Assembly: GCA_964426185.1 (NCBI GenBank)
Contig: CAYRPF010000001.1
Span: 71,695 to 103,694, forward strand
Direction: 5' to 3'
DNA from: an uncultured archaeon
GTDB taxonomy: Archaea; Asgardarchaeota; Lokiarchaeia; Sigyniarchaeales; Promethearchaeaceae
Length of the DNA: 32,000 bases
Shown one piece after another: positions 31,256 through 31,377 of this stretch. Made by a program: the position numbers and the translations under genes. Positions within the stretch are counted from its first letter, which is position 1, and each line of letters opens with the position of its first letter. A model generated the notes under the pieces. It was not told the origin of the DNA and did not search any database. It saw only the letters and a program-made list of their open reading frames with translations.

Positions 31256-31377
31256 GGGATCGTAGCTCAGCCTGGTTAAAGCGCTGGTCTTATATGAAGT
31301 TAATGCATACATCGAAAAAAAATTGCATTAATTGCTGAGTCAACCAGAGATGGAGGGATCGAAGCCCTCCGATCCCA
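31256..31377 (+). tRNA. tRNA-Ile(TAT) with a 47-nt canonical 37/38 intron (31295-31341); CCA not encoded
   Basis: GGGATCG/CGATCCC acceptor stem, A73, anticodon stem CTGGT/ACCAG, loop CT-TAT-A|A. BHB: CTTA pairs with TGAG, with 3-nt bulges TAT and TCA and intron stem AGTTAATGCA/TGCATTAATT. Confidence 0.9.

Follow-up and report, generated by a model that had tools for sequence, protein, structure and literature searches.

An intron-bearing tRNA-Ile(UAU) that very probably serves AUA decoding in place of tRNA-Ile2(CAU) and TiaS in an order of Lokiarchaeia

Our analysis of a 32,000-nucleotide stretch of DNA (hereafter the window), which lies on contig 1 of the assembly of an uncultured lokiarchaeon, suggests that the TiaS-less order to which this archaeon belongs very probably reads AUA with an intron-bearing tRNA-Ile(UAU) that has replaced tRNA-Ile2(CAU) and TiaS, both of which the order appears to have lost. 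In the scheme that we propose, the anticodon arm and the intron of the primary transcript would fold into a strict hBHBh' structure, the splicing endonuclease would cut within its two 3-nt bulges and a ligase would join the exons, giving a 75-nt tRNA with the anticodon loop C-U-U-A-U-A-A. This tRNA would be charged by IleRS and would read the frequent AUA codon as isoleucine, standing in for the tRNA-Ile2(CAU) that archaea usually modify with TiaS (agmatidine), while some modification or context would keep U34 off AUG. A preliminary description of the window had proposed that the lineage decodes AUA with tRNA-Ile(UAU) and without TiaS, and the proposal is supported by the absence of TiaS from 41 of 41 genomes of the order, by the conservation of the UAU gene and by the reading of AUA as isoleucine.

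Judged by its sequence, the locus at 31256-31377 is a real and spliceable tRNA-Ile(UAU) gene, with splicing predicted from the geometry of its BHB fold (Table 1). On the forward strand cmscan aligns it to RF00005 over model positions 1-71, i.e. the full model, with the anticodon loop interrupted by 48 inserted nt; the score is 45.5 bits, and the gathering threshold of the family is 29. Run in intron mode, ARAGORN reports a tRNA-Ile(tat) with a 47-nt intron at the same positions, and it misses the gene in its default mode, without introns. The spliced anticodon loop has seven nucleotides, with U33 before the anticodon (34-36) and a purine after it (37), so that the clean cloverleaf with TAT at 31291-31293 that had been described beforehand is correct in both coordinates and anticodon. 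A73 and a tRNA body nearest to tRNA-Ile(GAU) are indirect pointers to charging by IleRS. An A/T-rich tract lying 9-21 nt before the gene, TTTTAATTTTTTT, and an oligo-T run 16 nt 3' of the gene are candidate signals for the start and end of transcription. The D stem carries a C13.A22 mismatch and the T loop has A54 instead of U54 (cmscan). The latter change (window 31361, T loop ATCGAAG) is also present in some orthologs, as well as in other elongator tRNAs of these genomes, namely Leu-CAG, a tRNA-Ile(GAU) and several tRNA-Met (C25:32193-32276, L188). A TTG-started ORF of 144 aa without any family match (window 31332-31766, forward strand) begins inside the tRNA 3' exon, and its 5' part is probably not coding.

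Table 1. Features of the tRNA-Ile(UAU) locus, in window positions, and other intron-bearing tRNA genes of the host genome
Feature	Position	Strand	Basis
5' exon, tRNA positions 1-37: acceptor GGGATCG, D arm, stem strand CTGGT, loop C32 U33 U34 A35 U36 A37	31256..31294	+	cmscan alignment, ARAGORN -i, sequence
Anticodon TAT (U34 A35 U36), between U33 and A37	31291..31293	+	sequence
A37	31294	+	sequence
3' exon, positions 38-73: A38, stem strand ACCAG, variable loop, T arm GAGGG-ATCGAAG-CCCTC (A54), acceptor strand CGATCCC, discriminator A73, CCA not encoded	31342..31377	+	cmscan alignment, sequence
Intron, 47 nt, at canonical 37/38	31295..31341	+	cmscan insertion, ARAGORN; splice sites predicted from BHB geometry
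Central 4-bp BHB helix, 5' strand C32 U33 U34 A35	31289..31292	+	sequence
Central BHB helix, 3' strand TGAG (pairs C-G, U-A, U.G, A-U)	31336..31339	+	sequence
5' 3-nt bulge (U36, A37, intron nt 1) with predicted 5' splice site	31293..31295	+	sequence and BHB geometry
3' 3-nt bulge (last two intron nt, A38) with predicted 3' splice site	31340..31342	+	sequence and BHB geometry
Inner intron hairpin h'	31296..31335	+	upper 10 bp, MFE fold; rest paired by hand
ACA triplet, intron positions 15-17, one nt past the hairpin 5' strand	31309..31311	+	ortholog comparison
A/T-rich tract TTTTAATTTTTTT, candidate TATA-like archaeal promoter element	31235..31247	+	predicted from sequence
Oligo-T run, candidate archaeal terminator	31393..31396	+	predicted from sequence
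Mislabelled or missed intron-bearing tRNA genes, host genome	C46:23583-23685, C11:49635-49735, C30:3744-3846, C49:23579-23660

The intron had been described as a BHB intron at 37/38, and this holds: it lies at the canonical position and has the strict hBHBh' form, with two 3-nt bulges on opposite strands, a 4-bp helix between them and helices on both sides. The anticodon stem CTGGT/ACCAG flanks the motif on the outside, and on the inside there is a helix of 12 positions (31296-31307 with 31324-31335, including one A.G mismatch and one G.U pair) closed by a 16-nt loop at 31308-31323. The folding energy corresponds to z = -3.8 relative to shuffled controls. Introns of the Loki orthologs measure 45-59 nt, and the central helix is paired in all 11 orthologs with a canonical BHB. 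Some orthologs of family f3 (L009-L012, L015, L048) offer another arrangement, in which AGGCCC, the 5' end of the intron (six bases), can pair with G28-U33 and the minimum-energy fold presents U34-A35-U36-A37 as a tetraloop, replacing the canonical central BHB helix, which has a poor 3' partner there.

The codon that this tRNA would serve is in regular use. ATA amounts to 20.7 per 1000 codons in long ORFs of the host, which makes it about as common as ATG, and to 22% of the isoleucine codons. When 66 proteins from TiaS-positive Asgard genomes were aligned to the host genome, 268 ATA codons faced isoleucine (54%), valine (18%), leucine (12%) and methionine (1.9%), a residue profile that resembles those of ATT and ATC and is unlike that of ATG. 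AUA is isoleucine in this host and calls for a tRNA that reads it efficiently.

The possible loss of tiaS, which the preliminary description had raised, was followed by profile and translated searches. TiaS_FLD (PF08489) has no match in the host genome, in any of the 41 genomes of the order, among which are four single-contig genomes, or in any of the 69 genomes of family f3, while the control search gave matches only in the four archaeal control genomes. Over the 301 Asgard genomes the domain is present in 171 and missing from the whole of families f1, f3, f5, f6, f7, f16, f17, f20 and f25. The best E value of a tblastn search of the host genome, for which three full-length TiaS proteins from Asgard archaea served as queries, was 0.089, and TilS gave no match above the curated cut-off.

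The tRNA substrate of TiaS shows a similar distribution. Most TiaS-positive families have two elongator-type CAU genes by a strict pattern. One of them, GACTCATA, with the anticodon arm ...GACTCATAAT..., occurs in TiaS-less families too and is therefore the elongator tRNA-Met. The second, GGCTCATA, with the anticodon arm ...GGCTCATAACC... and the acceptor GGGCCCG, typical of tRNA-Ile, comes, among the matches listed, only from TiaS-positive families, the TiaS-less families having the Met type only. Three closed f1 genomes contain one Met-type elongator CAU gene each, beside the UAU gene, and an initiator in at least one, and an Asgard Ile2(CAU) gene used as the BLAST query against four closed genomes of the order gave T-arm fragments and no full-length match, so that no separate Ile2(CAU) type was found in closed relatives by either pattern or BLAST. 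The host assembly (3.26 Mb, 155 contigs, 34% G+C) is estimated to be 92% complete, and neither a CAU tRNA-Ile2 nor an elongator tRNA-Met was found in it. The missing elongator tRNA-Met shows that the tRNA set of this assembly is not complete, and it is from the closed relatives that the absence of Ile2(CAU) is concluded. The CAU pattern and BLAST searches were not exhaustive and could miss a heavily disrupted multi-intron gene. When the CAU pattern was loosened on the closed genomes, the counts equalled those of a backwards control, so that only the tRNA-like matches are usable, and custom scans (for the 3' three-quarters of a tRNA, and for CAT, TAT and GAT arms), mostly noise, retrieved the initiator and the UAU gene only.

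The tRNA genes of the host are rich in introns, at canonical as well as non-canonical sites (D loop, T loop, two per gene), and several of them are easily misread. ARAGORN labels the intron-bearing tRNA-Ile(GAU) at C46:23583-23685 as 'Ala(agc)', tRNA-Thr(CGU) as 'Tyr(ata)' and tRNA-Arg(UCU), which has a D-loop intron, as 'Thr(ggt)'; the true tRNA-Thr(GGU), whose intron is in the T loop, is missed by that program. The initiator tRNA, at C13:33357-33418, also has a D-loop intron. Pattern, grep and BLAST searches, the last with the gene of a same-genus genome, all failed to retrieve an elongator tRNA-Met, and a candidate for it on contig C7 was rejected as coding sequence; Asp, Tyr, Arg-GCG and other isoacceptors likewise escaped detection in this 92%-complete assembly. 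In other genomes the elongator tRNA-Met (L143 G001, L158 G010, L161 G023, L147 G045, L120 G064) has an intron of 33-56 nt immediately after the anticodon loop. Across Asgard families these tRNA-Met introns share a conserved GGGTC(A/G)GA block, with GATGA- and CTGA-like boxes in some, and such motifs may mark a box C/D-type guide within the intron.

Orthologs of the UAU gene were sought by BLAST in 40 relatives and then by a pattern search of the 301 Asgard genomes. Genes with the CTTATA loop and the 37/38 intron were found across the order, in families f1 (including the three closed genomes) and f3, and several of the f3 genes have a second intron in the T loop. The CTTATA loop is invariant across all orthologs. 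Base pairing is intact in 182 of the 187 stem cells compared over 11 spliced orthologs, the other five belonging to two sequences with a mis-indexed anticodon, and double compensatory changes occur at 14 of the 17 stem positions. Compensation in the stems together with an invariant loop argues strongly against a dead gene. A divergent upstream gene (30407-31048) adjoins the tRNA in 14 related loci from two families, with 35-75% protein identity, and because it is kept beside the tRNA in these loci the UAU gene is positionally orthologous across the order. The UAU pattern, for which an uninterrupted D arm was needed, had no match in the TiaS-less families f5, f6, f7, f16, f17, f20 and f25.

The product of the upstream gene (reverse strand) is a helical protein of 213 aa with a disordered, proline-ended tail. 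Neither Pfam nor NCBIfam has a family for it, within Atlas it occurs in Promethearchaeota clusters only and its Atlas model is poor, and the idea of a tRNA-modifying partner was dropped on account of the missing family and the poor model. Two other UAU genes differ from the orthologs. One is a second tRNA(UAU) in genome G006 (L022/L033), on the 2.1-kb contig G006:C777; its acceptor reads GAGCCTA, its intron lacks the ACA, and it is so similar to genes of Woesearchaeota (L210, L236, L239) that this short contig may be a binning contaminant. The other (L045, G176:C135) is a divergent and intron-less tRNA(UAU).

The UAU tRNA could still be a minor isoacceptor, with AUA mainly read by a C34-modified tRNA-Ile(CAU) that escaped our searches, such as one whose gene is split by several non-canonical introns and whose C34 is modified by an enzyme unrelated to TiaS or TilS. 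Many tRNA genes with D-loop, T-loop or multiple introns do escape standard finders, the host assembly lacks an elongator tRNA-Met, and the Loki-B35 paper reports only 34 tRNAs (PMC9834061). We nevertheless consider a hidden CAU reader decidedly unlikely, given that the three closed family genomes have exactly one Met-type elongator CAU gene and nothing like the Asgard Ile2(CAU), that the absence of TiaS matches the absence of the second CAU type family by family, and that the UAU gene is under purifying selection. The gene itself might instead be a decaying or silent copy, unexpressed or unspliced, as its C13.A22 mismatch and A54 could suggest. Both features are found in further tRNAs of these genomes as well, however, and intact stems throughout, compensatory changes among orthologs, conserved synteny and a strict BHB are hard to reconcile with decay; with AUA too frequent to lack a reader, a silent copy is highly improbable.

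Several mitochondrial codes assign AUA to Met and use tRNAs with a UAU anticodon to read it, and this is a precedent for a reassignment of AUA in the host, e.g. to Met, with the UAU tRNA charged otherwise. The alignments, in which ATA falls with Ile, Val and Leu, with Met at a very low frequency and a profile like that of ATT and ATC, leave such a reassignment practically no probability, and the tRNA body, with A73, is most like the tRNA-Ile(GAU) of the same family. We give equally little credence to the idea that this is a tRNA-Ile2(CAU) gene in which the T at 31291 arose by a recent C-to-T change private to the host or by faulty assembly. U34 does face a G in the BHB helix of the host, but every ortholog across two families has UAU, most orthologs with a canonical BHB have an A facing U34, a same-genus genome included, and TiaS is missing from the whole order; with UAU kept throughout the order, neither a sequencing error nor a private change can account for the T at this position. 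Replacement of tRNA-Ile2(CAU) and TiaS by tRNA-Ile(UAU) is the reading that we retain.

The origin of the UAU gene is a separate question, on which the base opposite U34 has some bearing. The preliminary description had noted that U34 forms a G-U pair with the intron sequence TGAG, as it does, and had read the pair as what a C34-to-U change would leave of an ancestral C-G pair. This second point is not supported, as the base opposite U34 is A in 9 of the 11 orthologs with a canonical BHB and the tRNA body is no closer to Asgard tRNA-Ile2(CAU) than to tRNA-Ile(GAU). The G occurs in the remaining 2, the host and a relative taken as Ca. L. ossiferum, and since A prevails, in the same-genus genome too, a neutral change from A to G at a later time is the simpler explanation of the G. 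When the anticodon is masked, the mean identity of the UAU tRNAs is 0.71 to tRNA-Ile(GAU) and 0.62 to Asgard tRNA-Ile2(CAU), and their body is most similar to the tRNA-Ile(GAU) of the same family; a maximum-likelihood tree of UAU, GAU and CAU tRNAs over 72 columns did not resolve an origin from GAU or CAU.

A UAU anticodon creates a difficulty of its own. A haloarchaeal tRNA-Ile mutant with U34, which carries cnm5U, binds AUG as well as AUA (PMC3895270), so that a bare UAU anticodon needs a safeguard, and every natural UAU user must have one against AUG misreading. The Loki introns have a feature that could be related to this need. In 20 of 23 distinct introns an ACA starts at intron position 15-17, one or two bases past the 5' strand of the hairpin, while the remaining loop, the 3' strand and the length diverge around this fixed element. 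The N-ACA thus lies 15-17 nt from the 5' splice site and 16-18 nt from U36/U34 across Lokiarchaeia. No ACA was found at the matching place in the DPANN tRNA-Ile(UAU) introns among the matches listed, or, by eye, in the other 37/38 introns of the host genome.

The PUA domain of Cbf5 binds ACA or CCA. The hairpin and N-ACA could therefore be a built-in dock for an ACA-binding factor, such as this domain, that would modify U34 and/or U36 (e.g. to pseudouridine) before splicing; we put this forward tentatively, as a possibility that we think rather unlikely, and the link from the ACA to Cbf5 is speculation. There are precedents both for Cbf5-dependent pseudouridylation of the anticodon in an intron-containing pre-tRNA, the H/ACA-guided Psi35 of Sulfolobales pre-tRNA-Tyr (PMC2651775), and for guide-free Cbf5, which acts on tRNA U55 and 23S rRNA (PMC6138745). 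What the Loki intron has in common with them is a helix with N-ACA directly after it, placed at a constant distance from the anticodon. Unlike in the H/ACA precedents, however, the substrate itself supplies the ACA, in the apical loop of its intron, and there is no recognisable pseudouridylation pocket or K-turn, so that the intron falls outside the definition of a box H/ACA guide, and a permissive Rfam scan (E up to 10) found no H/ACA or C/D family at the locus. If the docking-signal reading is true, it would explain how the UAU anticodon avoids AUG, and the intron-dependent formation of Psi-A-Psi in yeast tRNA-Ile(UAU) would have a counterpart that acts in cis and is encoded in the RNA.

Intron-bearing tRNA-Ile(UAU) genes are known from other archaea. 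Of 167 archaeal genomes, only those of Nanoarchaeum equitans and Ca. Korarchaeum cryptofilum were reported to have tRNA-Ile(UAU), and the Korarchaeum gene has an intron and is most like the tRNA-Ile(GAU) of its own genome (PMC6000648). The body of the Loki UAU tRNA, like that of Korarchaeum, is slightly nearer to GAU than to Ile2(CAU), but the phylum is a different one and the Loki trait, unlike that of Nanoarchaeum and Korarchaeum, spans a whole order and many genera. ARMAN-2, -4 and -5 (Ca. Micrarchaeum and Parvarchaeum) have an intron-bearing tRNA-Ile(UAU) with neither TiaS nor a CAU partner, and the pre-tRNA-Ile(UAU) of ARMAN-2 is cleaved in vitro by its own endonuclease (Fujishima et al. 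2011, PMC3239211). The ARMAN archaea are DPANN with tiny genomes and a 25-nt intron, whereas the Loki hosts have genomes of 3-6 Mb and introns of 45-59 nt with an ACA fixed in position, which is not seen in the DPANN introns compared. Our pattern scan of species genomes recorded CPR bacteria and DPANN archaea, and no Asgard archaeon, among the matches listed; these comprise many DPANN archaea with tRNA-Ile(UAU), most of them with an intron at the same site, and the initial view of UAU as rare in archaea was therefore overstated. A bacterial parallel is found in the tRNA-Ile2(UAU) of Mycoplasma mobile, which has an unmodified U34 (PMC3575796). This is likewise a prokaryote that reads AUA through UAU without a C34-modifying enzyme, although its tRNA, unlike the Loki one, is bacterial and intron-less.

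The resemblance to eukaryotes deserves more caution. In yeast, pseudouridylation of tRNA-Ile(UAU) is intron-dependent and carried out by Pus1. The anticodon of eukaryotic cytosolic tRNA-Ile(UAU) is Psi-A-Psi (PMC3575796, PMC8879553). The Loki tRNA is like its eukaryotic namesake in that UAU is dedicated to AUA and that the intron lies directly 3' of position 37, but unlike in eukaryotes this is a BHB intron in which the anticodon is base-paired. The host genome contains a single TruA/Pus1-family gene (PF01416), with no dedicated Pus1-type addition. Of the proposal that the lineage decodes AUA 'the eukaryotic way', the UAU anticodon and the intron after 37 therefore stand, as a resemblance only. 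The Heimdall-type clade has been described as closest to eukaryotes (PMC8813620), and two closed TiaS-positive genomes of one genus, apparently Ca. Heimdallarchaeum (3.08 and 3.3 Mb), have kept TiaS and two elongator-type CAU tRNAs. Because these apparent Heimdallarchaeum genomes keep TiaS, descent shared with eukaryotes is not established here and, if they are correctly identified, the Loki trait cannot readily be taken as the ancestor of the eukaryotic one.

Telling AUA from AUG is a classic problem of decoding, for which there are three textbook solutions: lysidine, agmatidine and the eukaryotic inosine or pseudouridine. The mechanism considered here is of a kind already known from Nanoarchaeum, Korarchaeum and ARMAN, in a host lineage for which it seems not to have been reported: the literature searched held no paper with TiaS and Asgard, and none pairing agmatidine with the Loki and Heimdall names searched, and a 2022 review still places UAU rescue in Eukarya (PMC8879553). 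The evolutionary meaning of the trait is limited because TiaS is retained in most other Asgard families, among them the apparent Heimdallarchaeum genomes, so that the use of UAU in Loki may be convergent with eukaryotes rather than ancestral. What our results point to is a whole Asgard order, the cultured Ca. L. ossiferum included, that has apparently dropped the archaeal solution for a eukaryote-looking, intron-bearing UAU tRNA, and in which the safeguard against AUG would be testable in a cultured relative of eukaryotes.
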